A stretch of DNA of 56,662 nucleotides, the filler included, from Dugesia japonica (lineage: Eukaryota): assembly GCA_001938525.1 (NCBI GenBank). It is 4 parts of 4 records of this genome, joined end to end, with 100 filler letters (N's around TTAATTAATTAA, not from the genome) between each part and the next. Parts side by side here need not be neighbours in the genome. Positions count along the whole stretch, not along the records: positions 1 to 12,185 come from MQRL01632059.1; positions 12,286 to 21,635 come from MQRL01340394.1; positions 21,736 to 38,014 come from MQRL01600664.1; 1 more part is not named here. The stretch is one strand, 5' to 3'. Both the position numbers and the translations under genes were made by a program. Below the pieces are notes generated by a model. It saw only the letters and a list, made by a program, of their open reading frames with translations. It searched no databases and had not been told where the DNA came from. This document shows, piece after piece, positions 5,985 to 34,137 of the stretch (within the stretch, counting starts at the first letter, position 1; each line of letters starts with the position of its first letter).

Positions 5985-6019
5985 GATTCCTGACGAAGAG
6001 AAAGTCGTAAATTAGAATT
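5985..6019 (+). ncRNA. Degenerate minimal hammerhead ribozyme (Penelope-type)
   Basis: GATTC CTGACGA A GAG AAA GTC GTAA AT TA GAATT. Confidence 0.5.
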
Positions 6020-6113
6020 ATTATCAAAAGCACACCAAAATAATTTTTTTCAATTAAATTAAGTTCTATAAATTCCCAATGCTCTACCTGAAATTTATTT
6101 GTAGACATTAATT

Positions 6114-6543
6114 ATGATAACTAATATTATATAAAGAGGTAGAGTGTTGCAAGAAGTAACAAAGAAAATGAACTTCCTTACAGATAAATCTATCAATTCA
6201 ACGTCAGATGGGACAAGTATACAATTAAATTCTTCAGAACCGGAAAATGAAGAATAATAGGATACAATCATAACCCTTATAACCGCAAGATTTGAACGAC
6301 TTTNNNNNNNNNNNNNNNNNNNNNNNNNNNNNNNNNNNNNNNNTAGATGAGAGTTCCAATTAATTTGTATAAATTAGTAAAAATTGTCAACTGTCAGTTT
6401 AAACCAGAGTTATTTTCTGCATTACGGCTTGTAAAATATGATTTTATGTAATACTTGAACTTCAAAATTTAAATTTTCAAGACGACTTGGACAACATAAC
6501 ATCATATTTATCCAATCTTATTGAAAACATTGATAACATTTAA
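6114..6543 (+). pseudogene. Intronless TATA-binding-protein-like gene (decayed)
   Basis: MITNII*RG.. / YTIKFFRTGK*RIIG (TBP repeat 1, cf. LIFSSGKMVCTG); MRVPINLYKLV..CQFKPELFSALRL (cf. FPIRLEGL..YEPELFPGLIYR); VILELQ..*. Confidence 0.7.
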
Positions 6544-6724
6544 AACAATAATATAACAAATTAAATAAAACAATTTTACTTGATATTGTTAAAATGGCAA
6601 AATAATGATGAAATAATATGAAATTATTCCATTCNNNNNATATTTAATTAATATGATTAAACACAAATCAATTTTAAAACGCATTTTTTAAAACATTAAT
6701 TATAAGTTAATTAATTCTAAACTG

Positions 6725-7165
6725 ATCAATTATTAAACGATAAATTTTAAATCCTATGAATTTTAAGCTGTTAAACTTTGATGCTCATGAATTTTAAGCT
6801 GATAAAATCTTATTCTTATTAATTATAAGTCGCTAAAATTTGATTCAAATTAATTTCAAACTGATAAATTTTAATTTTTATTAATTTTAAACTGTTAAAT
6901 TTTGATTCTAATTAAACTTAAACTGATGAATTCTTAAAATCTTATGAATTTTTAGGTTTATGGTGAGAGTTGTATTTTCAATGAGGAGTTCTATACTTTC
7001 TATGCAGTTGTCTTTAATTTTCTGTGATGACTCATGTATTTACCATGATGATACCTGTACATTCTATGATAAATTGTCTATGGTTTTTAATGAAAATATA
7101 ATTTTCCATGACAAAGTGATTATTTTCCATGTCGAAATGTTTATTTTCAATAATGAATCATATGT
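6725..7165. repeat. Degenerate minisatellites: ~31-bp unit (6725-6950), then ~21-bp unit (6955-7165)
   Basis: Units such as ATGAATTTTAAGCTGATAAAATCTTATTCTT and CATGACAAAGTGATTATTTTC. Confidence 0.8.
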
Positions 7166-10100
7166 TTGACATGTTGACTTAGAAATTTTATGTGTTGTTT
7201 TAGAATTTTGTGTGATGAAATGTAATTTTAGAGTGTTGACTTAGAAATTTCAATGTGATAAACTATATTTTTAGTGTGATGGATTATAAGTGTATATGTT
7301 TGTTTGAATTTTTATCTGCTGACTTATTATTATTATCTATGTAATCTATGAATGTTACTGAATACTTCTGTGTAATTTATAAAACATTTGAATAGAAATA
7401 TACAATGTTTGAAATGTTTTATTGACTTATATGTAATTTTTAATAATTTTAATGACTTTCATACGAGGGCTGTTTGAAAAGCTTTGAAAATGAAAAGAAA
7501 AAAACAACATTAATTGTTTAAAAATCAAATTAATTTTCTACAAAATCTCCTTTTAGCTGAACACATTTAGTCCAACGTTTTTCTAGCAACTGAATACATT
7601 GCTTGTAATGACTTTCACCAAGGCTTTTANNNNNNNNNNNNNNNNNNNNNNNNNNNNNNNNNNNNNNNNNNNNNNNNNNNNNNNNNNNNNNNNNNNNNNN
7701 NNNNNNNNNNNNNNNNNNNNNNNNNNNNNNNNNNNNNNNNNTGAATAGGGTGGATGGTCAAGCAACTCGTACTTAAATTCATTGAATTTTGTCATGGTCA
7801 AAGTGCTTTGTGGTCAGGTGCATTGTCTTGCACAAAAAAGATTTTTTTTCTTTTGAAAACCTGGTCGTTTCCCATGAATTATGTCATCCAATTGGTCCAA
7901 TAGGTTTACATAATACTGGGAGTTGATTGTTTTTCCTTTTCTAAGGTAGTTTAATAAAGAAATTCCTTTTGCATCCCAAAATACAGATGCCAAAACCTTC
8001 CCTGCTGATAAAACCATCTTGGCCGTCTTTGGTGCATTCAAACAAGCTTCCATCTACTATTTGGATTGTGCTTTTGTCTCTGGTGCGTCCAGGTTTTATC
8101 CATAGTTACAAGACGACTCATAAAATCTGTTTTATAATGATTAAATCTATCCAGACATGATAGAGGAAATTGCATTTTAATGCGCTTTTCATCGATTGTT
8201 AGCAGATGCAGCCCCTATCTTGCACAAATCATTTTCATCTTCAAATCTTCATGCAAAATATGCCAAACTATTTCATCTAAAATGCCTGTGGCAGAAGCTA
8301 TTTATCTAACCTTTATTCGTCGATTATCCAAAATAATATCATCTATTTCATGAATGATTTGTGGTGTTGTCGCGCTTTTTGGGCGTCCACTGCGTAGATC
8401 ATTTTCAATCATCGTATGGCTACGTCGAAACTTCAAAGCCCATCTGTGAACTGTTGAAAACGAAGGAGCACCTTCTTTTAATACTTTGACCATCTTTGTA
8501 TGGATTTCCGTTGTTGATAATCCTTCCAGGACAAAGAATTTTATGATCGTTATATATTTAATTTTTTCCATTTTAAAATTAATGNTGGTAAGTCAAATTA
8601 AAATAAGTAATTTAAACAAATTACTTTACATATGGGAATGCTATTATAAATAAGTTAGTATTAAAGATGAAATATTAAAACGGTTTATAAATTTTTTGTT
8701 ATTTTGTTAAATTAATCCTGTCGTTTTCAAAACTTTTCAAACCACCCAAGTATAACTTTAGCATGATGAATTATAATTTTTATGTACTGGTTTCGAAATT
8801 TTATGTGACTGCTTAGAATTATACTGTAATCNNNNNNNNNNNNNNNNNNNNNNNNNNNNNNNNNNNNNNNNNNNNNNNNNNNNNNNNNNNNNNNNNNNNN
8901 NNNNNNNNNNNNTTTTTGGTCTTCTATGTGTATTAAGTTTAATACGGTTATTAATTTAATAAGTTTATTGGTTAAAAATGTTTAATAAATATATCAAATT
9001 TAATAGGTTTATTAGTTTAACAAGCGTTTTGAGTTTATTGTTTTTTATTTCTTGGGGACATCTAATCTTAATGTTAATATTGTCCATGGGGAACATTTAA
9101 TATCATAGGAAAAATAAAAGTTTGTGTATATAATTTTAAGGATTTTCTATGGTTTTTTAAGTGTGGTCAGGATTTGAATTCGGGTTAGGATTATGGTTTT
9201 CTAAGTTTTTATAGAATTAAATAAAAATTTCTAGGATTTTAAAAAATTTTCCAAAACTTTTATAGAATTGTTTAGTGTTAAAGTTATTGTTATGGTTAAN
9301 GTTGCCGTGGCATTTACATTAAATAAAATAAATTTTTAAACCAAAACATAAATTCTAAGATCAACTTTCTAAGTCAACCCACATAAATTACAGTCTGTCC
9401 CATTAAAATTATATTCAATCACATAAAATTCCATCTCAACTCATAAAAAAATATTCTTTAAGTTAACATTATAGTTCGTCAGGCTAAATTGTAAACCATT
9501 TATAAAACTTAATAGTCTGCACATAGAAATTTAATGTCAACACGTTAACAGTACATTTCATCACAAAAAAGTCAGCACGAAACCTTTAAGCTCATAATCC
9601 TTCAACTCTAAAAATATAAAGAAGTAATAAAACATTTTCAAAAATTTTATAGAAGTCATCATATTTTATCATTAATTACATAAAAGTAATAATAATTTTC
9701 AAAAATTACACAGAAGTCCATAAACCTTCTAAGTCAGCACATGAAAATTCTAGCAAACATGTTAAACTTATAATTCAATACACTAAAACTATATTCTGTT
9801 ACAATAAAATTCTAATCCATCACATTGAGTTGTAACACATGTCTCTAAAATTACAATCCATTACACAAAATAGTAACACATTATACTTGATTTATAATTC
9901 ATCACACAAAACTTTCATTCCATCCCAGTAATATTAACACTTACATGTACAACCATTGAGCCAACATATGAATTATAATTCATCACGCTAAAATTACATA
10001 GACGTTATTAAAAATGATCATAAATTACAGAAGGCAATAAAATATTTCAAACATTACATACTTCTATTAAAGATTTTCATATGTTACAAAGAAGTATTCA

Positions 10101-10690
10101 ATACCTTTCAAACATTACAAAGAAGACAATAAAATTTCTAAGTCAACATATATAAAACTTCTAACCAACAAGTTAAACTTATAATCTATCACACTAAAAA
10201 TATATTTCATCACATTGAAATTTTTAAGTCATCACTTTAAAACTATAATCCGTACACTAAAATTATATTTCCTCACATAAAATTCTAAGTCAGCTCCTAA
10301 AATTTCTAAACCATCACACAAAATTACCACTCTAAATGTAAAATCTTTAAGTCAACAAATACAATTTATAATCCATCACAGTAAAATTACATTTCATCAT
10401 AGAATAATAGTATTCATTCACACAAAATTCCAACTCTACTAATGAAAATGAATGATCAATACGTTAAAATTATAATGCATCTCACGAAAGGCTAATCTCG
10501 TCCAAATAAAATTGACACTCAACAAGCAAAATTCTAAGTCAACACATACAATATCTAAGCCAACACATAAAAATTATAACACTGAAATTACAATCCATAA
10601 CACATAATTGTAATACATTTCACTAAAATTATATTCTGTTTCACAAAGGTTTCATTCAATCACAGTAAAATTCTAAGTAGTCACATAAAT
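6960..10690. repeat. Large fold-back structure with internally repetitive (~19-20 bp unit) inverted arms
   Basis: The reverse complement of 7170-7460 plus 8753-8830 aligns colinearly with ~9930-10330. The arms are built from AAATTCTAAGTCAACAC-like units. Confidence 0.8.
7464..8750 (-). mobile_element. Full-length decayed mariner transposon
   Basis: TA flanks; imperfect TIRs CGAGGGCTGTTTGAAAAG / CTTTTCAAACCACCCAAG; ~1.29 kb; transposase pieces RSGRPK, GKVLASVFWDAKG, LLDHPPYS. Confidence 0.95.
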
Positions 10691-11619
10691 AGTTTTAATT
10701 ATAAAATACGTGCCTGGAAAAAATAATAGAAAACATAATACTTTCTACCATGATGTTGTGGAGAAATATAGTATTATTTATTACATGATTAAATATTAAA
10801 TATGTCCTGCATGCACCACTATAGGATTAGGAACATACCAAGATTTTTATAGGATGTATGGACATATAGATTTATTTACAAAAAATAAAAATAAAATTTA
10901 TTAATTGAAATAAAAAAGAAAAATGACATGTATGCTCAACCCTTTTAGACATTTAAATCTGTGGTGATAGATGATAGTGACGAGGAAATTAATAAGATGG
11001 AACCAGAGGTAATTTTTATTGAAGAGGAAATCCAACCATCAGAACTAGAGAATATTCAGCCATAAGAACCAATATATGGTCGACAAGAGGATTGGATAAT
11101 ATAGTTATAATTTCTGAATGGAATGGAAATGAAATAAACGATAAAGATGAAGTTTTACAACAATGTTTAGAAGAAGAAGCACTGGTTNCATTGTTCAATC
11201 AGTTATTGTATCTGATTTATATAAATGTCATAAAATTCTTAAGTTAGATGTACCACGTTTCAATATGAGGGAAATAGTTATTCCAGATACATTGATACAA
11301 AACATTTTAAGATAATATTAGAAATAAAAAATTTAAAAATCCAGTTTNNNNNNNNNNNNNNNNNNNNNNNNNNNNNNNNNNNNNNNNNNNNNNNNNNNNN
11401 NNNATCTAGCTGTCTCACTTAGTAATAAGTTTATGAAACTTATATACATTAAGTTCATAAACTTAATATGCTCATAATTATGTACCTAAAATTTAATTAT
11501 TGTGTTTGAATATATTTAAACATTTTAAATTTAAAACAATATTTATAAATCATTTAAATTGGCTTGATAGATTTTTAAAGTTGTTTTCTGTTTTATTGAA
11601 GTATATTTAAGTTTTAAAT

Positions 11620-12164
11620 AATATTTAATTAACGGACATTCTGAAAGAACAAAGCATCAATCAACTGAACGTAGAATGCCTACATGCAGGTAAAGAAGCT
11701 CCCCNNNNNNNNNNNNNNNNNNNNNAATTTGAATCGTTGGATGTGCATTGATGTGCTGGACAATGAAATTCGTACATCAATGTATTATTTGCGGGGATGC
11801 AGTTAAAACATTAATTTATTCGATTATAATGAAACAAAAAAAATATTTGTTTTACCATATTTTTCTACTTTGTATTTTTTATTAGCAATTACATTTTCCT
11901 ATCAAATGATAGATCGTGCTTAATATGCTTTGTTAGTAACATTGATAAACTTAGCCTGTGCATATCCACAGTAATATTTCTACAATATTACTGAAAAAAA
12001 TTATAAGTTCTTTAAAATTCGTCAGTAATTATGATGTCTTAACAAAACATTCAGAATTTGAAATAAAAATAAAATATTTTATTTTTACCGTCGCTACCAG
12101 AAAGTCTATTGTTCACCACGAATTATCCGTGACGAATTGTTCTGCAACTAATTGCCTTAGAACC
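11620..12164 (+). mobile_element. Possible Mutator-like element 3' end
   Basis: Decayed tail ..MYYLRGCS and a terminal GACGAATTGT subrepeat ending in GAACC. Confidence 0.3.
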
Positions 12165-12185
12165 CAAGATTATTGCTAGTAAATA

Positions 12186-12285
12186 NNNNNNNNNNNNNNN
12201 NNNNNNNNNNNNNNNNNNNNNNNNNNNNNTTAATTAATTAANNNNNNNNNNNNNNNNNNNNNNNNNNNNNNNNNNNNNNNNNNNN
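12186..12285. other. Artificial contig linker N44-TTAATTAATTAA-N44
   Basis: Identical 100-nt six-frame-stop spacer occurs three times in the window. Confidence 0.95.
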
Positions 12286-12331
<46 letters not shown>

Positions 12332-12360
12332 TAATAATAATTATTATAATAATAATAATT
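12286..12360. repeat. (AAT)n microsatellite
   Basis: Direct reading. Confidence 0.95.
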
Positions 12361-13224
12361 TAAAGTATTTTTAAATAAGCTGATAATTTTATATTCGCAG
12401 ATTATTATATCCAAATTTTATGTACAAATTCAACTCTCGAATAATTAAATTAAGTAATGATAATAAAATTCACATAAATGAGTAACTAAAAAATTCATTT
12501 GTTTAAATGAGCCGATATAACGATTCTATTTGTAATGTTTTGCATGCTTATGCAAATTATGCTTGTCTTTTTTTATATATTTAATGTTTTTATTCTTACC
12601 AATAATTCTTTAACAATAACAAAAAAATTGTTTTCAAAAACAAAAATTTTTAATTTTATGCAATTGAAGAAAGAAAATTTATTTCAATAAATTCAAATTA
12701 ATTAAAGTTTTAAGAAAATCCAAATATTTTTGAAAGAAAAAAAAACAAATTTCATTAAATAAATATTTAAAATTATTTTGACAGATAAAACAAGATTATT
12801 TAATCAACGAATCAAAACTAAAAAATTGTGTAAATAAATCTAGATATTTCAATTAATACGAGTCCAATATAACTTTTTCTTTTTTATTATATTTAAATTT
12901 TTAAATTCTTGTTAAATTAAACTTTATTTCCTTTGTTTTATTTCCTATTTTAATTGAAAAGCATTCTTTTTGATAGTTGGTTTCCGTTATTCAAAGAAAC
13001 AATTGAAATCAATTGCGTTTGTATTTATCCACGGATTACAATGTTTTATTTATAAAAATTAATTTTCTTTTAATATGTAATTTGATATATCAAAAAAAAG
13101 TATAAACGTCTGAATTTCTTTTTTATTTTAATTTTAACGTATCCTAATAAAAATAATTTTTTTTCAATGAAAAATTATTTTAAAATTTGTCAAAAAATAA
13201 AGTTAATTTAAAATAAATTAATTT

Positions 13225-14241
13225 AAATTAATTAATAAAAAAATAACAGAACAATCGTTAGAGGAAACGTTTGTTGCAGTTTGAATATTTAAATCAACAA
13301 AACTAAATAAATCCATAAAGAATTATTCGAATCGAATATTTAAATAAATAATTATTATTTAAACAAATTTAACTTTTTTATTTTTGTATTTTAAATTTAA
13401 TTTAAATCATCTAAAATTTAATTTTTAATTAAAATAATAGATTTTACTTTCCTTTTATTTTAATTTTCAAACGAAATAAAACTTAATTTTCTTTTTAATT
13501 TTAAACAATTAAATTAAATTGATTATAATACCAAACGAAGTTTTATTTTAATAAAAAAATAGCATTGTGAAAATGTATATATAGATATTTTAATTTAATA
13601 ATGAAAACAAAATAATTTTATTTATTTATATGTGAAAATGTTATTTATATATAAACAGAATAATAAAACAGTTACTATTTGATTATTTGTATCAAATTAT
13701 AATTAAAAAAGACAAGTTTTTAAAATACAAAAAATTATATTTTTAAATGATATTATTCAAACAAATTTATTTTCTCAAGCTATTTACTAAACATTTAATT
13801 TAGTTTCCAATTTAAAATAATTTTTAAAAATATTCTATCCAATGATTTTTTATCGGAATGGAAAACTCTGTTTCATTATCTGGCATGTAAATAATGTCTA
13901 TCTTTCTTAAAAATAGGTCAGGACTGAATTTCAATTAAAAAACGTTATAATTAATTAACGTATTTGCAACCTTAAGAATATTAATTAATTATTGTGTAAT
14001 TTATAATTAACATTCTATTCAAATTAATTAATAAAATATAACAGAACTATCGTTAGAGGAAACGCTTGTTGCCGCTTGAATATTTAAATCAACAAAAACT
14101 AAATAAATCCATAAAGAATTTTTCGAATCGAATATATATAAATAAATAATAATTATTCAAACAAATTTACCTTTTTTTATTGGAAATTTAATTTTAAATT
14201 AAAATAAAAGATTTCACTTTCATTTTATTTTAATTTTCAAA
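13225..14241 (+). repeat. ~240-bp direct duplication (13225-13470 and 14022-14241)
   Basis: Shared core AACAGAACWATCGTTAGAGGAAACGYTTGTTGC...CGAATCGAATAT. Confidence 0.9.
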
Positions 14242-16138: not shown

Positions 16139-16300
16139 CAGTGGACACCTTTATAACGTGACGACAATTTTACGACAAGAACTCATACAGCGCGATAAAC
16201 AGTCCAGAATAGCATAAAAGATTAATTTTTTTTTTCTATAAATTTACGTGATTTTTTACAACGCGGAACGTATGTCCCCAAGTTTTTCGAATGTCTACTG
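16139..16300. mobile_element. Tc1/pogo-type MITE
   Basis: TA|CAGTGGACAC...ATGTCTACTG|TA, 162 bp. Confidence 0.6.
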
Positions 16301-17030: not shown

Positions 17031-17701
17031 AGCAAAAGAATTATTAAATTTTTTTTGAAATATATATTACAGAATTATGACTAAGTCTTATATGAATGAG
17101 TTTTTATCTTCTGCTTCTAATAGTAAATGTATTTCCAATTCTTTGCAAAACTAATTTACATCAAAAAAATATTTTAAAGAAAAATTTCAGTTAAGATAGC
17201 AAACAATCTAACTCTGTTTTAATCCAATCTCACAATCGTTATCTTCGTCTTTACTCAAACAACACAGTCACTTTCTGGTAATCTAAGAAACCAGTCAATA
17301 GTGCTACTTCTTTGAATACACATCTCAAAAGTATCAGAAAATCTAAGAACGAAAACTTTAGGGCAATAGATAAATTAATAAATAAATACTTTGATTAACG
17401 TTTTGTTGATTATTTGTGTATATTTACTAATAAATAATTCAATAAAAATTTTTTTTAGAATCTATTTAATACTTGTGAGGTGAAATAATCAAAACATTTA
17501 ATTAATACTAGTAGTCTTAGTAATATGTAAATGTATGATTACTTATGTGTATGAAAATCTGGCATATATTTGAATATATGACGATATAAGTGACAACAAG
17601 TTCAATTGTATAGTTATTGTGTATAACCCCAATATATACAGATATTCTTGGTATATCATTAATGTCTTTAGTTTTATTTAACAAGACTCATTAAAAAAGT
17701 A

Positions 17702-17786
17702 AATTCCTGACGAAAACAAAGTCAAAATATCGAATCAATCTCAAAAAACAAAAAATCTTTTGATCGAAGCTTTTATTTTTAATGAA
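17702..17786 (+). ncRNA. Hammerhead-containing short repeat (Penelope pLTR-derived), degenerate
   Basis: AATTC CTGACGA A AAC AAA GTC AAAA TA TC GAATC plus tail TTTTGATCGAAGCTTTTATTTTTAATGAA. Confidence 0.6.
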
Positions 17787-18179
17787 GACTTATTAATGTT
17801 TGCGTAAGATAAGAAAGAATATAAAATGAAAAAAATATTATAAATGTTTAAAAATGAAAGTTTTATTTAATTTGAAACATTAAATTGTTTTATCGTCGCA
17901 TTTATTTAATATTTGAGATTTTACAACGAATTGATATTTTAAAAAAAACTAGTTAAATAGTTGAGAACCAAATAAATTATTGAACAGATCTTTAAAAAGT
18001 TATCGTCTTATTGTCTTATAGTGGGAATATATCAAATTTAAGAAGTTATTCTAAATCATCTAACTGCTTATTAACTCTATCTATAACATTCATCTTTGCA
18101 TTTAAAAATTTAACACTTTTCATTCTAAGATTTATTTAAAGACAACAACAAAAACACAACATATAAATTAGTCTTTTTA

Positions 18180-18760: not shown

Positions 18761-18764
18761 ATCC

Positions 18765-20830: not shown

Positions 20831-21021
20831 TATAAGTAATAGGATTTTTACTTTTAAAATTCAGGGGCCTACCCTAAAAAATAAAATGTAAAATGTAAAA
20901 TGTAAAATGTTACATGAAAATATAAAATGTTACATGGTTAAAATAGCTATTATAATTTAAGAGGAATATATAAAATTAAAGAGGAAAAAAACATCACACG
21001 ATTAAATTATTCCTTTATAAA

Positions 21022-21635
21022 ATGAGTACTCAAATACACAAATGCAATAACTGTAATAAAGAATTTAAAAATCTAGCAGGTTTAAAAAGTCATGTTAATT
21101 CTAAAACATGTCAAAAGTCAGATTTAACATTTCCATGTTTAAAATGTAACAAATCATTTAAATCGCAAAATAGTTTACAAAAACATTTAAATGCATCAAG
21201 TTGTGGAAATTATGATAAGGTTCCATTATTCTGTGAAATTTGTAACAAACATTTTAAAAAATTAAATCAGGCAAGAGAACATTTTAATTCTGATCAACAT
21301 AAAGAAAAAGCAAAAAATGTTTTATTTGATCAATTACCAGGTGAAGAGGCAATTGATTTTGACCCAGAAATTAGAGATACTTTTAGAAAGTATAAAGACT
21401 ATGAAATTACATTTTTTAAAGAAAGTTCAATAGAAATGAAATATAATGTTGAAAANNNNNNNNNNNNNNNNNNNNNNNNNNNNAACTTATTTTATAATAG
21501 AGTTAAAGAAATATTTATTACTTATTTAGAATATGGTAGAAATATTATTGTAAACATGGGCGTTAAATGTAGATATACAAACACAATAAATAATCAATTT
21601 GTAGAAAGAGATTTTTCATCTTATTCTAAAAATAA
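21022..21635 (+). CDS. Intact intronless zinc-finger ORF (two C2HC and one C2H2 finger), truncated by contig end; possibly the N-terminus of a Polinton-type DNA polymerase gene
   Basis: CNNCNKEF..LKSH..C, CLKCNKSF..LQKH..C, CEICNKHF..EHFNSDQH; no stops outside the N gaps. Confidence 0.7.
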
Positions 21636-21735
21636 NNNNNNNNNNNNNNNNNNNNNNNNNNNNNNNNNNNNNNNNNNNNTTAATTAATTAANNNNNNNNN
21701 NNNNNNNNNNNNNNNNNNNNNNNNNNNNNNNNNNN
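21636..21735. other. Artificial contig linker
   Basis: N44-TTAATTAATTAA-N44. Confidence 0.95.
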
Positions 21736-21869
21736 TCGCTATATATTAGATTAATATTCAATCAATTGTAACATAAATAACTACGGTTATGTAGATAAAA
21801 TTATTTAATTTTCGAAAAATCTTCAAGAATAAGTACACTTCAAACTAGATCAATTTTTCATTTCTATAA

Positions 21870-22115: not shown

Positions 22116-23476
22116 AGATAAAAACTATAGAAATATTGATAAGATTTAAACCACTTGTACCTACTCAATTCTTATTGAAAGTAATTGCGATTAACTGATT
22201 GGATATTAACTGAGTTGTAAATACAAATTTGTTTTTACTTTTTAAACCACCGTTATTTAATGTTACCACTCAATATGTTTGTTATATGTACTTTTCATAT
22301 TTTTATCATTAATATCATTTAACACTTAATTACGTATCCAAATAAATGTATCACTAGGCGAATTAGAACGCCCTACTTTACATATTCAAGTTTAAACTAC
22401 GAGATTACATATGTTTATTTAATACACCTTTGAGTTGAAATTTTTATTGTTGAACAAGATGTCATCCAAATTATTCATAGTAAAGCAGCATTAAATATTC
22501 GAATTAGAATATCAGACTACATGAATAATTTCTCTATTATTGTTCTTTTGTTTCATCCGTAATAAAAAAAAATTCTTTAAATATAGTTTTTGCGATGTTT
22601 CATTGTTTCTTTCTGAATTTTTTTAAATGTTTCAGGACAAGAAAAAGGCTCGTATTTTTATTTTGTTTAATAAATAACAGGCTGGGACGAAGCTTTTTTT
22701 TAATATTACCATTAGCAATTGTTCATAACGCATTGACTAGGAAAACTTGTACTAAATAATCTATTAAAATACATATCTTTAGAATTTTTCTTTAGTTATT
22801 TTCAAAGGAACAGGTAAAATTTTAGACAAATCTTTCATTTTTCTAAATTAAACTTATGAATCTTGAAAGTATTTATTAAATAATTCGACAATATCAGTAA
22901 AAAAATTACACTACTAAATATAAAAAATTTATTACTATTTTTTTAAACTATTATTTTAAACTTCGATAGTTAATGTGTGATATGCCTAGAAATATGTACA
23001 AACACTAACAACAATAATTATATATAAAAAAAAATGTTAGATTTATTCGTTTTCATCATTTAATTACATTTCAAAAAAATACTTTCTGAATTCATTTAAA
23101 ATAAAATCTTCGATCAAAATCCACGAAAAAAACAAATTTTGATCAAAGCTTTTATTTTAAATGAATTCTGAAAAACGACCAAAAATTATCCAATAATTAT
23201 TCTCGCAATAATTGCAATTGTAAAAAAATACTTTCAATTCAAAACTTTATTAAAATACAGACAGTTAGCCTCTTTAAAATTCTTCTTGACTTTCTGAAGG
23301 TTAGCTTCCAAAATAGCCTTAAATGCAGTTTATATTTTATAAAATTAATTTAATCAAATTATTATATTTATTAAAAAAATTTATTTTACATTTTTTTNNN
23401 NNNNNNNNNNNNNNNNNGAAATAATTTAATCAAATAATTTAAAACAAAGCAAAACCATTAAAATTTTTATTAATAA

Positions 23477-23799: not shown

Positions 23800-25051
23800 T
23801 TTGTATTCTAAACATTTATATTTAAAACACTTAAAATTAAACATTTGAAATTAAAGTTTTACACTAAACATTTACAGTTAAAACTTTTGCAATTAAATAT
23901 TTCATTTTGAAAATCTATACAATTAAATTTTACATTTCTCAACTTATGCTAATGAAAAATATACCTAATAAAACAAATCTCAATATTTCAAAACCGAGGT
24001 AAGCACCTTAAGACCAAAGAGAAAATTTGATTGGAACACGAAATAGTAATATTAATCAATTTAAGTTAAGTTGCATAATAAAACTATTTAGTAATTTTCC
24101 GACAAAAAAATTAAAATTTCCCAGGCCTTGTTTAAAACAATAAAATTTAAAATTAAATTTCTATTGATTTAATAATATAATGTTCTGAATTTCATTGATA
24201 TTTCATTAAAATTGAATGGATTAAATATAAATTTTCTGATTGACAAATTATTTACACTGGCATTATTTACATTGCTTATTCACATGGTGAATTTCAATAG
24301 AAAACAAGACAAAACTCATTTGAACATAAATGACTTAGCATTCAGTTATAATTTTCTTTTGCTAACAAATTCAATAAGAATTTTACTATTTAAAATATTC
24401 TAGTGTATTGAAAATATTAACCAAATCATAATTATTAGATTTGGTAGTCGGCATTTCAATTATCTTTAAACTTATTAACATGTTTACTTTTATTTTCAAT
24501 TTTTTTTCAAACTTTATCGGGGATAAAACAGCTGCTGTGAAATATTTTGATATCGATAATGTCAATGAAATATTTTAAAGAAATATTATTATCATCTCAT
24601 ATGCAGATTTCTCTTTCATTATTTGATTAGAGATTTATTTATCGTTTAACTTTGACCACATGAAACTTTCCTTTGATGGGCTTAGTTTTATCTAAATATT
24701 TTTCTTCCTTTTCGCAAAATGGTTGAATATTTTTTACAAAACCATAATATAATAAATTAAAATATTATAAACAAAAAATTTAATATTTTTTTAATTTTTA
24801 TTTCAATTCAATATACAATGAAATTTTTACCGATTTTTTTGCTTTATTTTATTTTAGATAAAGTTTCTAATTATTCATTAAATCAGGTTTAGATTTCTGA
24901 TATTTCTTTTTCGAAATTGTCATTTTAATGACAGATTTAAAATTCATTAAAAGAAAAAATATTATTAAAAATTTTTCAAGAATATTTACATATAAAATAT
25001 GGTTTTATTGTTTTTTAAATAATGTTTTAACACCATCAAATTTTATTTCAG

Positions 25052-25560
25052 TCCACAGTCAATCAACCTTCCTCCAAACTTCCAAAAACGTCTCAATTAA
25101 CATTTGAAATATCACTAAATTCCAAACGAAAAGAAAATCAACAACTTGGTCTTAATATTCACTATCGAAATGAAAAAGACAATCCATCACTTGGTACAGG
25201 AATATATATTCACTCCATTCTTATTAATAGTCTTGCTGCACAGCAAGGAGGATTGCAAGTTAATGATAAATTGATTGGAGTAAATGGAAACAGCCTTTCA
25301 GAGATAACTGTTGAAGAAACAATTAATTTTCTTAAAACTGCTATGCAAAACAATTCGGTTCTCGCTATTACAGTCATGAGAGAATCATCCTATGAGGAAT
25401 TTTCAGATGTTACAGACAACAATCATATCAGATCTATATCTAATTTGGCAAACACTGAAACTGCTATAAAGTCTGATTTGTCTAAATGTATTCTACCAAA
25501 CAAATTAATAATGGAAAGTAAACCAAGAAAATCTAAACAAAAACATTCATCAAATCATAA
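25052..25560 (+). CDS. par-3: par-3 exon encoding the PDZ3 domain
   Basis: TTTCAG acceptor, GT donor (phase 2). LTFEISLN..LGLNI..GIYIHSIL..AAQQGGLQVNDKLIGVNGNSL resembles Par-3 PDZ3. Confidence 0.85.
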
Positions 25561-25897
25561 GTAGGAATTAATAATTAATCTAATTAAACTTTTATTGGTT
25601 TTCTACTAGAAGAATATATAGATCACATAAAATTAGGCAATCAAATATATCTAGAAATTTTGTTAAATAATAAATTTAATTTAATTTAATTGAAATCTAA
25701 AATTTAGGGATGCATTTATTAATAAGCTTATTAATTAATTAATTCTTAATAATTATCATTATTCTCCAATAAGCTTAATAATTGACCCACCCACGTATTT
25801 TACTTCTAATACCCTAATGATTTCTTAATATTAATAAGCAAAATTAATAATAAAAATATTAATTAAAGCTGAAGAATAATCAATCAATAAGAATAAA

Positions 25898-26588
25898 CTA
25901 GGTGGTTTATGAGCCGCAAGTCGCCCCGTGATCAAAGAAAAATCATTTATAGAATTATTTTTGAATTAAATTTTTTTATCCATAATATTTCTACAAAAGA
26001 AAAGATAAAAGGATACATACTTACTGCCAATGTGGCATGCAAATGAAGTCTGCTAAAAGAGTTCACAACAATCACACGCCTTTTAGGCACCTCATTTTTG
26101 TCTTATTCATTTGTTTGCTAAGATCAAGAGATCTTATTTTGTTCGATATCAGTACCGCCTGTTTGCTCTCTTTTTTCCTGTTGTCCAACGTACCTCATGT
26201 CCACTTTACTTTTTCCACCAACCACCCACCATATTTGGCACATAAATTACTTCAGGAAGTTGCCTGATCATGTTCATTCTGCGTGTTTTTATCTTTTAGC
26301 TTTAGTTTAAAATTTTAAATTTTGAGTTTTAACTCGTACAGATAAATCGTACGCCAATGCATTTTTCTCATTTTTGAATTTATCAATTAAAATGGAGTCT
26401 TACCAATTAGTATTAAAACGAAGACGACATAAGCATTTTTATACAAGTTTATCAAATATTATTACTTATTATTTGAACTTGAGTTTTTTGAGTTTAAAAT
26501 TAAAGATTGAAAAACGAATTTATTTTCTTAGCAACGTAATATTAAATAATTTAATTTCTAAAAATTTTTAATTCATCTTTTATGTAGA
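25898..26588 (-). mobile_element. Probable non-autonomous Helitron
   Basis: Minus strand A|TCTACATAAAAG ... GC-rich segment then CTAG|T. Confidence 0.45.
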
Positions 26589-27938
26589 TTCAAAAATACA
26601 ATAAATAATTTTAAATTTCGATTTACAATATGCTTCTAGAAAAAAACTCTAATTGCAAAAATTTTTAATTTAATGATTTATTAGAAATTTGTTTTTTCAT
26701 GTAAAAATAAAATTACATTCTTATTGTTTTCATAATGTATTAAATAGAATCTGTAAATAATTTTTACGTTTCCTCACCATTTCATTGTTTTCATTTTTTA
26801 TTGAACATTCTTTTTTCTAGATTAAATACTAACTAATAAGATGTTAACTAATAACTGTTAAGATGTTTTTTTAGAAAAGCAATTATGATGGCATCTAAAG
26901 AATTAATTTTTCGGTGGTTATTTTTTTACAAATTTAACAATCAGTTTTATAGCGATTTTTGTCTCGATGGTTTTCTTTATTAATTTAACTGAATTTTTAC
27001 ACAGTTCAAGAATGTATTATGTAATGACTATTATAAATTTTACCAGAATTTTGCTTTTTATTAAACTTGTTTTTATAATTATGATAATATTCTTGATCAT
27101 TTATTTCCATGCAAAGTTGATATGAATGTTTTTTNNNNNNNNNNNNNNNNNNNNNNNNNNNNNNNNNNNNNNNNNNNNNNNNNNNNNNATAAAATGTAAA
27201 AAGTTAAAAAAACTTCGTGTAATTTATTATAATATTAATAACTTTATATCTTAGAGAAGCATGATATTATTGGCTTTAATTAATTAACACGAATTTTTAG
27301 AGCAATCAAAGAATAGTTATATTTTTTGTAGATAAAGTATGAATTTCAGTGAATGTATACATTTACGAGAATTTTTAGAGAAAGTATGCATTGAATAATA
27401 AGGTAAATGTAACATGCTACAAATATTTATAACTATATTTTATCTCATATTTGAGACTGTTAAAGGTCAGTTAATTTAAAATATTTAAAGTTTAACTAAA
27501 GCTTTGCTGAGAATGAATGCAATGCCTAGTGAATGATTTAAAAGATATTTTGATAAAACATTAGTGGAATACATTTAAAATGTATATTTTCAATTTTTAA
27601 TTTTCTANNNNNNNNNNNNNNNNNNNNNNNNNNNNNNNNNNNNNNNNNNNNNNNNNNNNNNNNNNNNNNNNNNNNNNNNNNNNNNNNNNNNNNNNNNNNN
27701 NNNNNNNNNNNNNNNNNNNNNNNNNNNNNNNNNNNNNNNNNNTAACTATTTATCTTTTAATAATATTTGACTTTTCACTATCCGTGTCATTTTGATTTAA
27801 TAAATTTTCTTATAAATTTTCTGATTAAATAAATAGTAATCAGTCCATTTTGTTTTTAAAATTTATTTGAAAATAATTTGAGACATTATTTTACATTGAA
27901 ATTTTCCATAACTTAACTAATTAATTTTATTATAGTAG

Positions 27939-28115
27939 GAATTCATCTAGTGATAGCTGTTCACAGAATGAATGTGAGCTATCTTATTCTCACGCATCAA
28001 ACCAATTTGAAAGAGAAGGAAAAGGTCGTCGAAGTATGTCTGAAAAAGGGAAATTTCATGAAGATGCTACTCAGTTCGAAATTTATCGTAAAAGAATTGA
28101 TAGTGTTGCTTTTAA
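27939..28115 (+). CDS. par-3: par-3 exon encoding the aPKC-binding CR3 motif (end in N gap)
   Basis: Phase-2 acceptor matches the previous donor. FEREGKGRRSMSEKGKFHEDATQ compares with vertebrate FQREGFGRQSMSEKR..DASQ. Confidence 0.88.
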
Positions 28116-28400
28116 NNNNNNNNNNNNNNNNNNNNNNNNNNNNNNATTTCTAATTAACTCTATAAGTATTATCGAATAATAATAACAATATGGAATTATT
28201 TAATGGAATATTTTATGGAATAATTTAATGTAATATTGTGTGAAAGAATGAGGATATAGTGAAATTTATAATTACCTTACTTGATGTTGAAAAGAGATAC
28301 CAAAGAATGAATAATTAAAATAAACCAATAAAATTTCGATAAAATCTAAAGAATTGAGTAACAAAGATCTATTGCGTTGAATCTATCAAGAAATCGTCAT

Positions 28401-28551
28401 GTTCCTGAAGAAGGCTGTTGTCGAAAATTTGAATTTCTTTACAAATACATTTTATTTTGATCGAAGCTTTTTCTTNNNNNNNNNNNNNNNNNNNNNNNNN
28501 NNNNNNNNNNNNNNNNNNNNNNNNNNNNNNNNNNNNNNNATTTTAATGAAA
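28401..28551 (+). ncRNA. Minimal hammerhead ribozyme with complete core (28401-28435) plus family tail
   Basis: GTTC CTGAAGA A GGC TGTT GTC GAAA AT TT GAAT; tail TTTTGATCGAAGCTTT. Confidence 0.7.
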
Positions 28552-28976
28552 TACCAAAAAATGATTTTAATTTCTTAATTGTCTATGCCAAGGCTGAATA
28601 TGGGTCACATGGAAAAAATTTTTTATTTCTATTAAATTTACCTTTACGTTATTTACTTTAACAGCACACAGAAACGAGCTTTCATAAAAAATAATCATTA
28701 ACATGTTACTCAGCATATTATTGCAGATGACCAGACATAACGGCATATAAAGAAGTCTAAACACATAGAAGCATACACGGATAAAATATACACGAATAAA
28801 AGCTCACATTTTGTATTTATCGGACATATTTATTATTAAAATTTCAATACATCAGGTATGAAAGTTCACATTTTAGACCAAGATGTGTAAGTTCACTATT
28901 CTAAATTAAAATAAAATTATTTTTGTTTTTAAAAAACCATTATAAACAGCTTGAATATATATTTTATTATCTGATA

Positions 28977-29160
28977 ATCTTCTTCTTCTTCTTCTTCTTN
29001 NNNNNNNNNNNNNNNNNNNNNNNNNNNNNNNNNNNNNNNNNNNNNNNNNNNNNNNNNNNNNNNNNNNNNNNNNNNNNNNNNNNNNNNNNNNNNNNNNNNN
29101 NNNNNNNNNNNNNNNNNNNNNNNNNTTATTATTATTATTATTATCATTATTATTATTACT
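28977..29160. repeat. (TTC)n/(TTA)n microsatellite across a gap
   Basis: Direct reading. Confidence 0.9.
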
Positions 29161-29897
29161 GAAATATCTAAACTCATAATTAAAGATAAGACTCACTAAT
29201 TACATTAATAATATGATTTTAAATGTTTATAATTCCTTTACAAATATGTATTACTTATGATATTTTCATTTAAACTTTAAGGTTTGATATTTAATGTTTT
29301 TTGAAAATAATATTGAATATTGTTTTATAATAGTAATTATGTTAGATGAGTTTGAAGTACTCATCGAATCATTAATGTCAAAACTCATTTCCATAAAAGA
29401 TTTATTCACAAAACAAAACTATATCCAACACTATTTGTTTATTCAAACAAATTAAAATTCCATGTTTTAATTGGTGATCATTTTTCAAATATTAAAATTT
29501 TTCACAAAATTTTTACTTTATTATTAAATTATCATTTAAAATTTTAAAACAAATACTCATAGGTTATTTAAATTTTCATCTAAAATTTAAATATTTTTAA
29601 AAAAGAAGATTATATGAAAAATGATCTCCAACCACAAACAATTTCAACTCGTTTTTCAAAACATACTCGCAAAATACATATTAGTTATTATTATTTTAAA
29701 TATCTTTGACTAAAATTCTATTGCATGAAAACTTATTTATACATGAAAACTTTCTACAAAAAATTATTTCATTTTTATACAACATCCAAACTTTTATATA
29801 ACAGTTCAAAACAAAAGCTATTAATCATCAAATAACACTACTTTAATCAACAAGAAAAAATTTAAATTGAAATCATAAATATATTTGATAAATACAA

Positions 29898-30146
29898 CTG
29901 TGACGTGACTAGAGTGGGCAAACAGGATATTTGCCCCAGGCGCCAAACCTATTTTTTGATAAATTTTCAATAAAATTTGCATTTTTGAGTAATTATTGAT
30001 ATTTTCTTTCAGGTTTTTTCATTTTTTTAAATGAATTTCATTATGAAAAAAAATATTGCAAAAGTTGGAATTAAAAAATGTTAAGAGTGAATTGGGGTGA
30101 AATTTCTAAACTTTCCCGAGCTCCGAAAACTCTAGTTACACCACTG
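29898..30146. mobile_element. hAT-type MITE
   Basis: TIR CTGTGACGTGACTAGAG / CTCTAGTTACACCACTG; 8-bp TSD AAATACAA/AAATACGA. Confidence 0.75.
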
Positions 30147-30712
30147 AAATACGATGTAGGCTTTTGTTCATGTGAATGTTTGTTGTAGAACCGTTATTAC
30201 ATTATCTGTTACTCATTTTTACAATAATTGCCTTTTATTGAGTTGAATATATTTTTAAATACANNNNNNNNNNNNNNNNNNNNNNNNNNNNNNNNNNNNN
30301 NNNNNNNAAAAAATTCAATTTTATGGCTTCCTTCAATGGACTACAATTAACAATTGAAATGAAAAATTTACAATTATCCATTTCTTAGTTTATATATATT
30401 TGGATATTTATTAATTTTATCAATATTATAACCAATCTTCCTGCTATTTGAGATCTTTTGATTTCACTATGAATATATTTAAAAAAAAATATTATATAAC
30501 CACTTATATTTTAAGCCAATTAGAAATTTGAATTACAACTCCTTGATATAACTGANNNNNNNNNNNNNNNNNNNNNNNNNNNNNNNNNNNNNNNNNNNNN
30601 NNNNNNNNNNNNTATATAAAATTATATTAATATAATTGATATTTAATTTTCAGATATTTATAGTTACAATAGATTAAAAATCTTAGCTTAAAATGAGGTT
30701 TTATCTGTTCGC

Positions 30713-30748
30713 AATCCTAATTTTCGACGATCGTTTCCTTCAGGGATT
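30713..30748 (-). ncRNA. Minimal hammerhead ribozyme variant
   Basis: Reverse complement AATCC CTGAAGG A AAC GATC GTC GAAA AT TA GGATT; compensatory stem I change. Confidence 0.55.
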
Positions 30749-30839
30749 GGATTTATGCCAATTCCAAAAGTAAACTCCTGAAGGCAACTTTTTACATTTA
30801 CAGCTTAAAATGTCGATTACATAGATTAAAAAAAATACA

Positions 30840-31610
30840 GCAAATGAAACATCCAAAGATTCCTCAATTTTTTCATCGAAATGAAAGTATACACAAAAAT
30901 TCAGACACACGATATCAACTTACAATTCTCCCATTATGGAAATTGATAATAACATTGAGGACCTTCAATTTAAACTAATACAAACATATAAACACAACAA
31001 AAATAACAATAAACAAAGTAAGGAAAATCCAATTATTAAAGAAATTAAAAACAGACAAAACAAATAAATGAATTTTTTTTCTGAACATTTAAATAATTAT
31101 AAAACAATAGCTCACAAAAGACTACCAACTACAGAATAAATTAAATTCAATAAATAATTAATTCAAATAGCAAAAAAATATAATATAAAAATTTAGAAAT
31201 ATATGCAATAAAAAAATGTCACTTATAAAATAACATGTACCCTTTGTCAAGAAACATATATAGGTAAAACATGCAGAACCATCCGTACAAGAATTAAAGA
31301 ACATCTCAAACAAAAAGAAAGTGAAGTCTTCAAAAACTTTCAGCACAAACAATATTTCACCAGAAAAACATCACATAACATGGAAAACATTAGGAACAGG
31401 TTACATTTCCATATTTCATCAAAAAAGATAATTCTAAAATCAATGTAATTTATATAATTAAAATCAAAAAAAAAAAAATTTAACCAATTAAAATTCAGAA
31501 AATTTAATTAATTCAAAAAAATATTTCCATTATTAACATAAATCTTGAATAAATAAAAAAACGTTAATTCCTGACGAAGACAAAGTCGAAAATAAGACTT
31601 ATTATCCAAA
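30840..31610 (+). mobile_element. Penelope-like retroelement 3' remnant: GIY-YIG endonuclease followed by hammerhead (31566-31600)
   Basis: NVTYKITCTLCQETYIGKTCRTIRTRIKEH at ~31215-31305; AATTC CTGACGA A GAC AAA GTC GAAA downstream. Confidence 0.88.
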
Positions 31611-31614
31611 ATAT

Positions 31615-31800
31615 TTGGTTGCATTGAAAACACTTTTTCGACCAGATGAAAATTCTCGGATCCAGTTATAAATGGTCGCCTTATATGGGGCTTTTTCACC
31701 ATATACCTCTTGAAGCTGATTAAAATTGCCTTCTTGCCAACTCCCTTTACTTGTAAAAATCGGATCATACTGCAAAATTCAACATTATCGAACAGTTTTT
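31615..31800 (-). pseudogene. Mariner transposase HTH fragment
   Basis: MIRFLQVKG / LQEVYGEKAP..TIYNWIREFSSGRKSV. Confidence 0.75.
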
Positions 31801-32074
31801 TTTTAATTATTCTAATCTAGTGCAAACAAAAATTATCATATNAAAAGAAATAATACATTTCATACCTATATTTTTGATAGAGTTTAAATTTCTGAAATAA
31901 TTATTGAAATAATTTTTATTTTTACTATTAAAATTTTTAAAATTATTTCTAAATTTATTTTTAATATTTTTGGAATTCGAAATATTTTCAATGAAGTTTC
32001 TATTATTATTATTGAATTAATTTTTATTTTAACTATTAAAACTTTTAAAAATCAAAATTTATATTAACTTTTAT

Positions 32075-33192
32075 AACTGGATCTTTCCGACAAATTCGCA
32101 TAACAGATGTAGCAAATTATATATTAAAACATTAGTTCCAAACATGAAATTTTCATCGCTTGAATCAAATAAGTTAAAAGATGCGACCGTGTTGGTCATC
32201 GATGAAACGCTGTATTTTCATTTGCTTCTTGATACTAATCTTTCGCCACTAGAAATAATGATGTATTCCTTCGATGGAAAGATGTTGATGTTGAGTTGTG
32301 GTTTTCATCAAAAATCAAATTTAGTTAACCAACATAATCGAATTATGTGCCAAAAATTAACTATTGTGGCGTTAGGTAAAGTAAATAAGCTTAATTACCA
32401 ACATAAATTCTGCCAGTCAACAAGATTTTAACGACTGGGTTCTAAAAATAAACGATTAATAATTAAGGAATGATTTTNNNNNNNNNNNNNNNNNNNNNNN
32501 NNNNNNNNNNNNNNNNNNNNNNNNNNNNNNNNNNNNNNNNNNNNNNNNNNNNNNNNNNNNNAAATGAAAGAATAGATAAAATTTCTTAAAACGTCATTTT
32601 ATGTCAAAAGATTTTGATCTTATATAGCTAAACCATGTAAAGTTGAAAACAGCTAATTATAGTAGCATTGATTTGATGGTGTCCAATATTCCACATGACA
32701 ATTAATTTCCCAGTTGAATTTTTCAACAGGAAGTGCACCTCATTTATTGAAACTAAAAGATTGTTACGTTGAAATTTCTCAACATGATAAATATAGTATT
32801 TATTGTGTATTTGCCATTTCGTTGAAAATTTTTAACGCAAAGAAACAAGTACTTAATAAAAACTGTAACAGAGCAAAAATCATAACATTGAGTAAAATGT
32901 GGGGAGATTTGCATTCTTATAATTGAAAGTGATAGTATTTTATCTTTGAAAATAAAGCGTCGTCAATTTCTGACGATGTTAACATTTGCCATGGCTATAA
33001 ACAAGGCACAAGATCAGTCATTTGATCCTATCGGTATTTATTTATCTGAACCAGTTTTCCGTTGTGATCAACTATACATATCTGTAACTTGATACCATAA
33101 TCACAAAATTCTAAGGGTGTGAATCAGCAATACACTTTACTGAGGCAAAATTATTGGTGACGAATGTTCATTTATAAAGAATATTGTATAAG
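32075..33192 (+). pseudogene. Helitron RepHel PIF1-type helicase remnant
   Basis: VLVIDE, FDGKMLMLSCGFHQ (cf. FGGK..LGGDFRQ), RRQF..TFAMAINKAQDQSF..GIYLSEPVF..QLYI, KNIV. Confidence 0.88.
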
Positions 33193-33530
33193 TTTCAATA
33201 AGTAAAAACTTCCAGATCAAAAATATTTTCATTAATTTCTTGTGAAAGGTTTTCTTCGGAGATTCACTTTTTTATTATCATCAAAAATATTTTAGTAGAG
33301 TTGTATATTAAATTTTCAAACAATAATATTTCCATAAATTTCTATATATTATTTAAATTTGTTTTATAGTGCCGANNNNNNNNNNNNNNNNNNNNNNNNN
33401 NNNNNNNNNNNNNNNNNNNNNNNNNNNNNNNNNNNNNNNNNNNNNNNNNNNNNNNNNNNNNNNNNNNNNNNNNNNNNNNNNNNNNNNNNNNNNNNNNNNN
33501 NNNNNNNNNNNNNNNNNNNNNNNNNNNNNN

Positions 33531-33740
33531 ATTTCATTAAATTAAAAGCTTCGATCAAATTATTGTTTTTCTTTTTTTACGTTCTTGATAGTATTTTGAA
33601 TTTTCGACTTTGATTTTGTCTGGAAAAAAGTAAATTCCTAACGAAGACAAAGTCGAAAATTCGAAATATTATCTAGAACTAAAAAAATAAATATAAAAAA
33701 AGAAAAAGAATATTTTGATCGAAGCTTTTAATTTAATGTA
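33531..33740. repeat. Palindrome formed by two inverted hammerhead-repeat copies
   Basis: The left arm (33531-33625) is the reverse complement of the right arm (33633-33740), including the hammerhead and the GATCGAAGCTTTT tail. Confidence 0.85.
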
Positions 33741-33952
33741 TTGTCAAATACGACAAATGATTAAGTCTAACAATTTTCTCGCCATAATTGTAATTGAAAA
33801 ATATTTTAATTTACAAAATTATTGCAATAAAAATAAAAGAACCGACGTAAATGTCGAAGTCAAAATAAATCAATTTCATTAACATTTAATGATATTAACA
33901 AGAAAATAAATTGAATATCAAGTGTACATTTCTATCAAACTATGCTGATTAA

Positions 33953-34038
33953 TTCATTAAAATAAAAGCTTCGATCGAAATTGGTTTTTTTGGCTTTTGA
34001 TAATAATTCTATATCTCGACTTTGTTTTCTTCAGAATT
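33953..34038 (-). ncRNA. Hammerhead-containing repeat copy, degenerate
   Basis: Reverse complement AATT CTGAAGA A AAC AAA GTC GAGA TA TA GAATT plus tail. Confidence 0.55.
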
Positions 34039-34137
34039 GATTTTTGCTGATTAATTTGCAAGTTAAATAAAGTTTTGCTTCAAATTTCAAAATTTCATCA
34101 ATATTAACAAATTCAAATTTTTAACTTATTTTTTCAG

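Follow-up and report, generated by a model that had tools for sequence, protein, structure and literature searches.

Minimal hammerhead ribozymes have been described in the pseudo-long terminal repeats (pLTRs) of metazoan Penelope-like elements (PLEs), where they derive from truncated elements and occur mostly singly or as opposite-strand pairs 100–700 bp apart (Cervera and de la Pena 2014, PMC4209133, in the part available). Hammerhead dimers in PLEs have also been reported (Lunse et al, RNA Biol, as cited in the available part of PMC6765202). Here we analyse a stretch of 56,662 nt from Dugesia japonica (GCA_001938525.1), referred to below as the window, to which the copy counts, consensus and covariation apply. 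It carries eight short hammerhead-bearing repeats, which an initial annotation had assigned to a separate non-autonomous family of ~90 nt, of the retrozyme or SINE-like (short interspersed nuclear element) kind. It would seem, with a probability of about 0.8, that the eight repeats are instead short, decayed pLTR pieces of one PLE family, inserted by the element itself through target-primed reverse transcription.

For PLEs with an endonuclease (EN+ PLEs), the accessible text of PMC3846280 on Adineta Pen describes pLTRs that contain the initial 12 amino acids (aa), a tail on one inverted arm, target-site duplications (TSDs) of 8–10 bp and solo pLTRs. In PMC11167929 on Anolis Poseidon, also available in part, AT-rich DNA is nicked on both strands by the PLE protein, and reverse transcription begins inside the start of the open reading frame (ORF), at two sites that mark the limits of the tail. 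The hammerhead depends on the protein for its cutting, which insertion can do without, uncleaved RNA being the main substrate. Retrozymes, in the accessible part of Cervera and de la Pena (2020, PMC7229834), are tandem units of 150–450 bp with canonical hammerheads and abundant circular RNAs.

Eight hammerhead repeats in the window

All eight copies named in the initial annotation were found, its minus-strand numbers being the low ends. Taken from stem I to stem I, the hammerheads lie at 5985–6020, 17702–17737, 28400–28436, 31566–31601 and 33633–33668 on the plus strand and at 30712–30748, 33592–33627 and 34004–34039 on the minus strand. A 35-nt probe from the copy at 33633 (+) matched four other places in the window at ≤8 mismatches, while 200 shuffled windows gave none at this level and 0.005 per shuffle at 9 mismatches. 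A profile built from eight stretches of the window returned ten places at E ≤ 0.009, including two that had not been used for training (30747 (−) and 23115 (−)), and the best match in the reversed window, which served as the control, had an E of 0.041. The eight repeats are confirmed as real and stand well above chance. Scanning with Rfam at E ≤ 1 gave no match to the hammerhead families in the window.

The copies measure 73–170 nt and are either solo or inverted. An A-rich spacer and a tail had been noted behind most of them; the GATCGAAGCTT tail is present behind five of the eight. Two further arms at 23083–23239 carry the tail without a hammerhead.

The majority core is that of a minimal hammerhead

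The column majority of the eight copies gives all 12 core positions (CUGANGA / GAAA / UH) and parses as an extra A, a 3-bp stem II, GAAA, a 2-nt spacer, UH and a 5-bp stem I. The extra A lies between positions 9 and 10.1 in every copy, and the A15.1-NN-U16.1 palindrome is present in seven of the eight (five AATT, two ATAT). At the level of the motif, these features support the proposal that the hammerhead is a minimal one of type I and of PLE origin, of the kind that would require a dimer. The proposed consensus, CTGA(C/A)GA...GAAA...TH, holds as a majority, but the core is intact in only one copy. This is 28401 (+), which has a G-U pair in stem II and a U at 17; six copies score 11/12 and one 10/12. 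The decayed copies have each changed at a different place, namely A13 in 5985–6020, G12 in 17702–17737, A9 in 30712–30748, U16.1 in 31566–31601, U4 and G8 in 33592–33627, G5 in 33633–33668 and A14 in 34004–34039. Departures from the majority number 8 among the 88 cells of core columns and 40 among the 184 cells elsewhere, which fits several source copies under past selection, although the contrast is biased because the copies were picked by their core.

A tolerance of GGC/GTC had been suggested for stem II. The majority has a 3-bp stem II, and its G10.1-C11.1 pair is G-C in four copies and broken in the other four. G10.1 is changed in 17702–17737, 30712–30748 and 34004–34039; stem II is changed in 33592–33627. 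Stem III had been described as one pair in a palindrome; the palindrome stood, but its 2-nt loop prevents it from closing as a pair within a monomer. The AATCC/GGATT change in stem I (U-A to C-G) occurs in a single copy, 30712–30748 (−). Covariation in stems I and II is not significant on eight rows: of 500 shuffles, 63 equalled the two-sided changes and 25 the score. Paired cells in the stems nevertheless amount to 78%, compared with 16–48% in slid controls.

The minimal hammerheads of PLEs in the available part of PMC4209133 have the same CUGANGA, the extra base before G10.1-C11.1, GAAA followed by a 2-nt palindrome and UH, the short stem I, the U/A-rich flanks, the position 3′ of a GIY-YIG ORF and the single or opposite-strand arrangement. 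AU and UA palindromes and 3-bp stems II also appear in its Fig S3, among whose 56 listed examples the hammerhead of this family was not found by eye. It differs from them in that stem II is at the short end (3 bp with a 3–4-nt loop), the palindrome is AU-only and seven of the eight cores are mutated.

The majority sequence is predicted to fold as an open hammerhead without stem III at −3.0 kcal/mol. For the swapped dimer, nearest-neighbour energies, which leave out tertiary contacts, give −1.4 kcal/mol with a 4-bp AAUU helix against −5.0 without it, and for the ACGU palindromes of two related loci described below (L001 and L002) stem III is about break-even. All five sequences folded gave z-scores between −0.70 and +0.27 against shuffles. 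The AU-only, 4-bp shared stem III suggests that the ancestral hammerhead may have been a weak cutter, working as a dimeric or protein-assisted ribozyme. The genomic copies are likely to be inert; as close neighbours lie on opposite strands, a read-through transcript of them would form a hairpin and not a dimer.

Since 28401 (+) alone has a complete core and is the sole strict descriptor match in the window, we considered whether it might have been kept as a working host ribozyme in what is probably an intron of a PDZ-domain gene. At about one core change per copy, however, one intact copy in eight is expected by drift, its fold is no better than that of shuffles (z 0.23), and for the 84 nt in which it lies a fold other than the hammerhead is predicted. 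The predicted dimer is also less stable with stem III than without it (−0.8 against −5.0 kcal/mol), and the closest partner on the same strand, at a distance of 3.2 kb, is mutated. A host function for this copy is therefore very improbable.

The tail runs into a Penelope-like ORF

One copy, 31566 (+), had been described as directly following a GIY-YIG ORF. It does lie 3′ of such a frame, but the frame is broken and ~105 nt of 3′ untranslated region (UTR) separate its end from the hammerhead. The frame at 31215 scored 27.2 bits against a Pfam cutoff of 22.6 and, used as a query, found three relatives among nine candidates. The best of these, 86% identical over the matched part, was P0002, an intact PLE protein of 843 aa with a reverse transcriptase (RT) and, at its C-terminus, a GIY-YIG domain; a single ORF of this make-up is also present in P0004. 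P0002 matches the window in a broken ORF fragment at 30796–31181 (+) (aa 207–352, with 56% identity over aa 219–352), which has stops, one frameshift and small deletions, and in the endonuclease fragment at 31212–31428 (+) (aa 752–824; 87% and 68% in tblastn), of which the C-terminus could be followed by eye to ~31460. The RT core, aa 353–751, is deleted from the PLE at 30796–31460. The A-rich 3′ UTR and 3′ pLTR follow at 31461–31612 (+), the latter with a short, degenerate tail. A blast with the 3′ UTR of this long copy returned AT-rich matches alone, none of them lying upstream of a further copy.

At the other end of the protein, aa 7–22 of P0002 match 23189–23236, directly behind a tail copy (11 of 16 identical, E 0.017). 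The copy at 33633 (+) has the same DNA as 23128–23257 (77% over 133 bp, E 4e-17), and the ATG in its tail opens the frame R-Q-M-I-K-S-N-N (pattern R-x-M-x-K-S-N-N), like the N-termini of P0002 and P0011. As the start of the ORF runs in frame behind it, the tail is the 5′ UTR and start codon of the PLE, and the repeat is its pLTR. The order pieced together from the copies is GIY-YIG end, 3′ UTR, hammerhead, spacer, GATCGAAG motif, ATG and ORF start.

This family and PLEs only 33% identical to it in protein have in common a second motif, G(A/G)TCGAA(A)G, at 20–50 nt past the cleavage site. It is found at 17762, 23141, 28459, 33556, 33717 and 33976 in the window, at ~2428 in L001 and at ~2087 in L002. 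In predicted folds it pairs with the 3′ half of the hammerhead (33633 (+) and 28401 (+)) or with the ATG region (L001), and its role may be that of a promoter element or of a switch.

Boundaries of the insertions

Three solo copies are bounded by TSDs. The piece at 5977–6049 (+), consisting of hammerhead and spacer and stopping before the GATCGAAG motif, has exact 12-bp repeats at 5965–5976 and 6050–6061. The solo pLTR at 17695–17784 (+) continues through spacer and tail to an ATG at 17782–17784 and is flanked by 17683–17694 and 17785–17796, matching at 11 of 12 positions; inverted ends were first considered for this copy, and the direct 12-bp TSD fits better. The solo pLTR at 33955–34044 (−) likewise has a tail and ends at the ATG, between exact 12-bp repeats at 34045–34056 and 33943–33954. 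The pLTR copy with the complete core, at 28392–28475 (+), enters an N stretch in its tail, with the ATG context picking up again at 28540.

There are three head-to-head pairs. The first, at 23087–23221, consists of tails only, lacks a hammerhead and was not in the initial annotation; its plus arm has an ATG at 23161 followed by 61 nt of the PLE ORF start, where the match to aa 7–22 of P0002 lies, and its TSD is an exact 14 bp (23073–23086 and 23222–23235; null 0.17%). In the second, at 33531–33796, the inverted arm, 33531–33627 (−), has hammerhead, spacer and tail and ends slightly beyond the ATG at an N stretch, while the direct arm, 33626–33796 (+), has hammerhead, spacer, tail, an ATG at 33736 and ~60 nt of ORF start. 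One flank is an N stretch both for this pair and for 28401 (+). The third is formed by the inverted, divergent pLTR at 30677–30754 (−), which has a degenerate tail, and a probable ninth remnant at 30766–30788 (+), the start of a 5′ pLTR lying directly 5′ of the ORF fragment. This remnant is identical to 17695–17710 at 15 of 16 nt (E 0.41), ends after the core's first half and has CTGAAGG in common with its partner.

In the two readable pairs, direct arms reach about ATG+61; inverted arms stop no more than a few bases from the ATG, and so do the solo copies 17702 (+) and 34038 (−), which end at the ATG. The 3′ ends thus fall into three classes or more, lying before the GATCGAAG motif, at the ATG or at ~ATG+61, and two copies end inside coding sequence. 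Relative to C3, the 5′ ends lie at −13, −12 and −10 in the copies bounded by TSDs, at −12 to −14 at 33626 and at −12 at 30766, a clustering that is inflated because the copies were ascertained by their hammerhead. All eight copies span the cleavage site and so, given an origin by reverse transcription, came from RNA that was uncut there.

EN+ PLEs (Adineta Pen, PMC3846280; Craig et al. 2021, PMC8557442; Anolis Poseidon, PMC11167929; all in the parts available) likewise have pLTRs that take in the ORF start, a tail confined to one end, head-to-head junctions and TSDs, and both solo pLTRs and internally deleted copies are known from them. The dimensions differ, with a pLTR of ~90 bp here against 193–218 bp in Adineta Pen, a tail of about 55–60 bp against the 30–40 described in EN+ PLEs, and TSDs of 12–14 bp against 8–10 bp in Adineta Pen. 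The solo copies here also keep their TSDs and have a common 5′ start just before the hammerhead.

Origin of the short copies

If the repeats were a separate non-autonomous family of ~90 nt, SINE-like or retrozyme, that arose from the pLTR and is copied in trans by the PLE, this would account for three TSD-bounded copies starting within 4 nt of one another and for two copies that end at the same ATG and have in common the ATAT palindrome and a G10.1 to A change. The two ATAT copies differ at N7, however, the variable 3′ ends enter coding sequence, and the probable 5′ pLTR of the ORF-bearing copy begins at the same −12 place. None of the 44 tandem-repeat rows in the window overlaps any hammerhead copy, and the boundaries lie off the cleavage site, unlike those of a ribozyme-cut circular intermediate. 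The non-LTR retrozymes in the available part of PMC7229834 do have a type I hammerhead, low GC, long TSDs and a possible dependence on PLE enzymes in common with this family. Their hammerhead is canonical, with a 6-bp helix I, a 4-bp helix II and a loop-loop contact, whereas here it is minimal, helix II has 3 bp and helix I at most 5, the copies are solo or inverted and the unit continues into an ORF. The eight copies thus lack both the tandem 150–450-bp units and the canonical hammerhead that define retrozymes, and they are not a fixed non-coding unit with its own 3′ end as a SINE-like family would be. With a tail that enters the PLE ORF in frame, the separate family of the initial annotation is not upheld. 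Solo copies with TSDs, head-to-head pairs and a tail on one arm match described PLE pLTRs and not a separate ribozyme SINE, which we regard as improbable.

Within the pLTR reading, the solo copies could have arisen from full insertions by recombination between the two pLTRs. This would keep the TSD, taking a fixed 5′ end from the 5′ pLTR and a variable 3′ end from the 3′ pLTR, and recombination or deletion is invoked for solo pLTRs in the available part of PMC3846280. In that same text, though, solo pLTRs are without TSDs, the homology here is only ~90 bp, over which recombination would be inefficient, and the hammerhead-less pair at 23087–23221 requires truncation regardless. Recombination is therefore an unlikely source.

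The short copies might also be ordinary 5′-truncated 3′ ends, left where the RT stalls past the hammerhead and jumps by pairing with an A-run. An A-run is indeed present at this place in the long copy (31550–31561), the left TSDs end in A, and picking copies by their hammerhead biases the 5′ ends. A-rich sequence extends over 105 nt of the 3′ UTR, but the three ends set by TSDs, the junction at 33626 and the remnant at 30766 all fall at −10 to −14; truncation of this kind seems to us somewhat unlikely.

Run-off at the 5′ end of the transcript is the likeliest cause of the clustered 5′ ends, though we would place it a little short of even odds. The GIY-YIG domain would nick AT-rich DNA with a stagger of 12–14 nt, and reverse transcription would then start inside the RNA, mainly at either of two places, the ATG itself or a point ~60 nt inside the ORF, a start at the second giving the tail. 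Priming on both strands would yield a head-to-head pair with the tail on one arm, and a transcript primed at the first pLTR-ORF junction and copied until the RT runs off its 5′ end would give fixed 5′ ends. By analogy with the two start sites in PMC11167929 (available in part), the two main classes of 3′ end may be two such sites. That the short copies form a distinct class of product of internal priming in PLEs, reverse transcribed from the first pLTR-ORF junction to the transcript 5′ end, is a tentative and rather doubtful extension.

Related loci and clade of the element

As an outside check we used 14 related loci from metagenomes, of which eight were examined at the endonuclease end. In two of the 14, L001 and L002 (33% aa identity to P0002), the stop codon is followed after ~35 nt by a minimal hammerhead with an A-CG-U palindrome, and then by the GGTCGAAAG motif, a T-rich stretch, an ATG and a common 28-nt tail. 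This same order of elements agrees, from outside the window, with the tail being a 5′ UTR and the repeat a pLTR. A hammerhead-like variant missed by the descriptor was seen by eye in another of the loci (L012, 2069–2105), ~260 nt past the end of a distant PLE ORF; its stem II is 4 bp long, its GAAA is preceded by an extra T, and its palindrome is CATG. Viral contigs gave no match to the hammerhead pattern and no relative of P0002.

The endonuclease of P0002 has CxxC and two His (CCHH), and the Cys linker before it is of the reduced kind (C-x-C ... C); P0002 also carries DKT and a linker resembling CxCx5C. The accessible text of PMC8557442 gives DKT and the CxCx5C-like linker as marks of the Hydra clade, whose PLEs it describes as lacking CCHH. 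P0002 has these two marks in common with the Hydra clade but differs in its CCHH, which excludes that clade as defined. By eye, its CCHH and reduced Cys linker come nearest to the PNL2_SM row of Nematis-type PLEs in Fig S2 of the same partly available paper. An Atlas search placed P0002 among eukaryotic RT/GIY-YIG clusters that carry no clade name.

Setting of the copies in the window

The window is 26% G+C with animal-like content, including a PDZ exon, a C2H2 finger frame and Gypsy, DDE and Polinton-like remnants. At least half of the words of 33531–35354 occur in seven sequencing runs from four studies, which bear a single organism label and one of which may have given rise to the assembly; RNA runs were absent from the listed matches, and eleven runs scoring 0.31–0.33 and two scoring 0.41–0.46 were left out of the evidence. 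The PDZ-domain exon lies at 25031–25564 (+) (Pfam E 1e-13), has its best solved-structure matches in DLG4, and is one that we take to be Par-3-like; no longer homologue was found for it at E ≤ 1e-10. A 203-aa low-complexity frame follows on the same strand at 34125–34736 (+). Six of the eight hammerhead copies lie between the two, probably in introns of one gene.

Gypsy-type remnants occupy 44757–48343, with RNase H on the plus strand (Pfam E 6e-20) and gag/protease-like frames on the minus strand. The latter lie between direct repeats of 90% identity, 45213–45458 and 48090–48343, which are possibly the LTRs of a deleted element nested in another. At 610–4680 there is a Polinton/Maverick-like remnant whose frames are presumably integrase-like and capsid-like, with a weak match to an adenoviral-type protease at 4126–4392 (E 0.034, below cutoff). 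Nested inverted and tandem AT-rich repeats, foldback- or MITE-like (miniature inverted-repeat transposable element), extend over 6695–10690; 6695–6950 is inverted with 31/62-bp units, and 7175–7450 is inverted relative to 10011–10292 at 77%. A C2H2 zinc-finger frame is found at 20980–21687, a frame presumed to carry Helitron/PIF1 helicase-like motifs at 32033–32431, and a DDE_1 transposase fragment at 38218–38496 (E 1e-10). A degenerate 5S rRNA-like sequence at 36480–36591 (−) scored 25.5 bits in Rfam against a gathering score of 38 (E 0.51).

Discussion

The copies in the window show the tested features both of PLE minimal hammerheads and of EN+ PLE pLTRs, and they are likely to be remnants of an ordinary, already described kind. 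Several observations weigh against assigning them to one self-inserting PLE family. A full-length copy was not seen as DNA, so that the link from ORF through hammerhead to ORF start is pieced together from separate copies and P0002. The N-terminal match of P0002 to the window is short (16 aa), and BLASTP of the 13-aa start of 33633 (+) gave no alignment. The remnant at 30766 is weak when taken alone, and it may belong to a separate insertion from 31566 because their N7–A9 letters differ; no TSD was found around 30660–31620, where the longest repeat is 6 nt. Not every 5′ end is fixed, since the pair at 23087–23221 is truncated inside the pLTR. For the TSDs the null is 1.3% for a score ≥12 and 4.5% for ≥10 with a restricted geometry that was chosen after the data were seen, rising to 5% and 17% respectively when unrestricted; for 17702 (+), a second 12-nt repeat lying further out competes with the TSD. 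Finally, the descriptor search gave no match in 12 of the 14 related loci (8 of the 14 examined at the endonuclease end).

In the literature searched, with subscription journals and Repbase beyond its reach, neither this family nor run-off stubs whose 5′ end is fixed were found described. Solo and inverted end repeats of PLEs with minimal hammerheads have been in print since 2013–2014, and as a class the copies carry little weight. For annotation, such stubs belong under pLTR fragments and not under retrozymes or SINEs. Their sharp 5′ boundary and two 3′ boundaries bear on how the PLE RT starts and on any role of hammerhead cleavage. If the short copies are products of internal priming and run-off, the solitary state of most genomic minimal hammerheads would be accounted for, and each stub of ~90–150 nt would record the transcription start, ~12 nt before the core, together with two RT starts, at the ATG and at ATG+61. 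They would then be an in vivo footprint of the internal initiation seen in vitro for Anolis Poseidon, and stubs, if they carry the internal promoter, could act as tiny retroelements bearing a hammerhead and give rise to more stubs.

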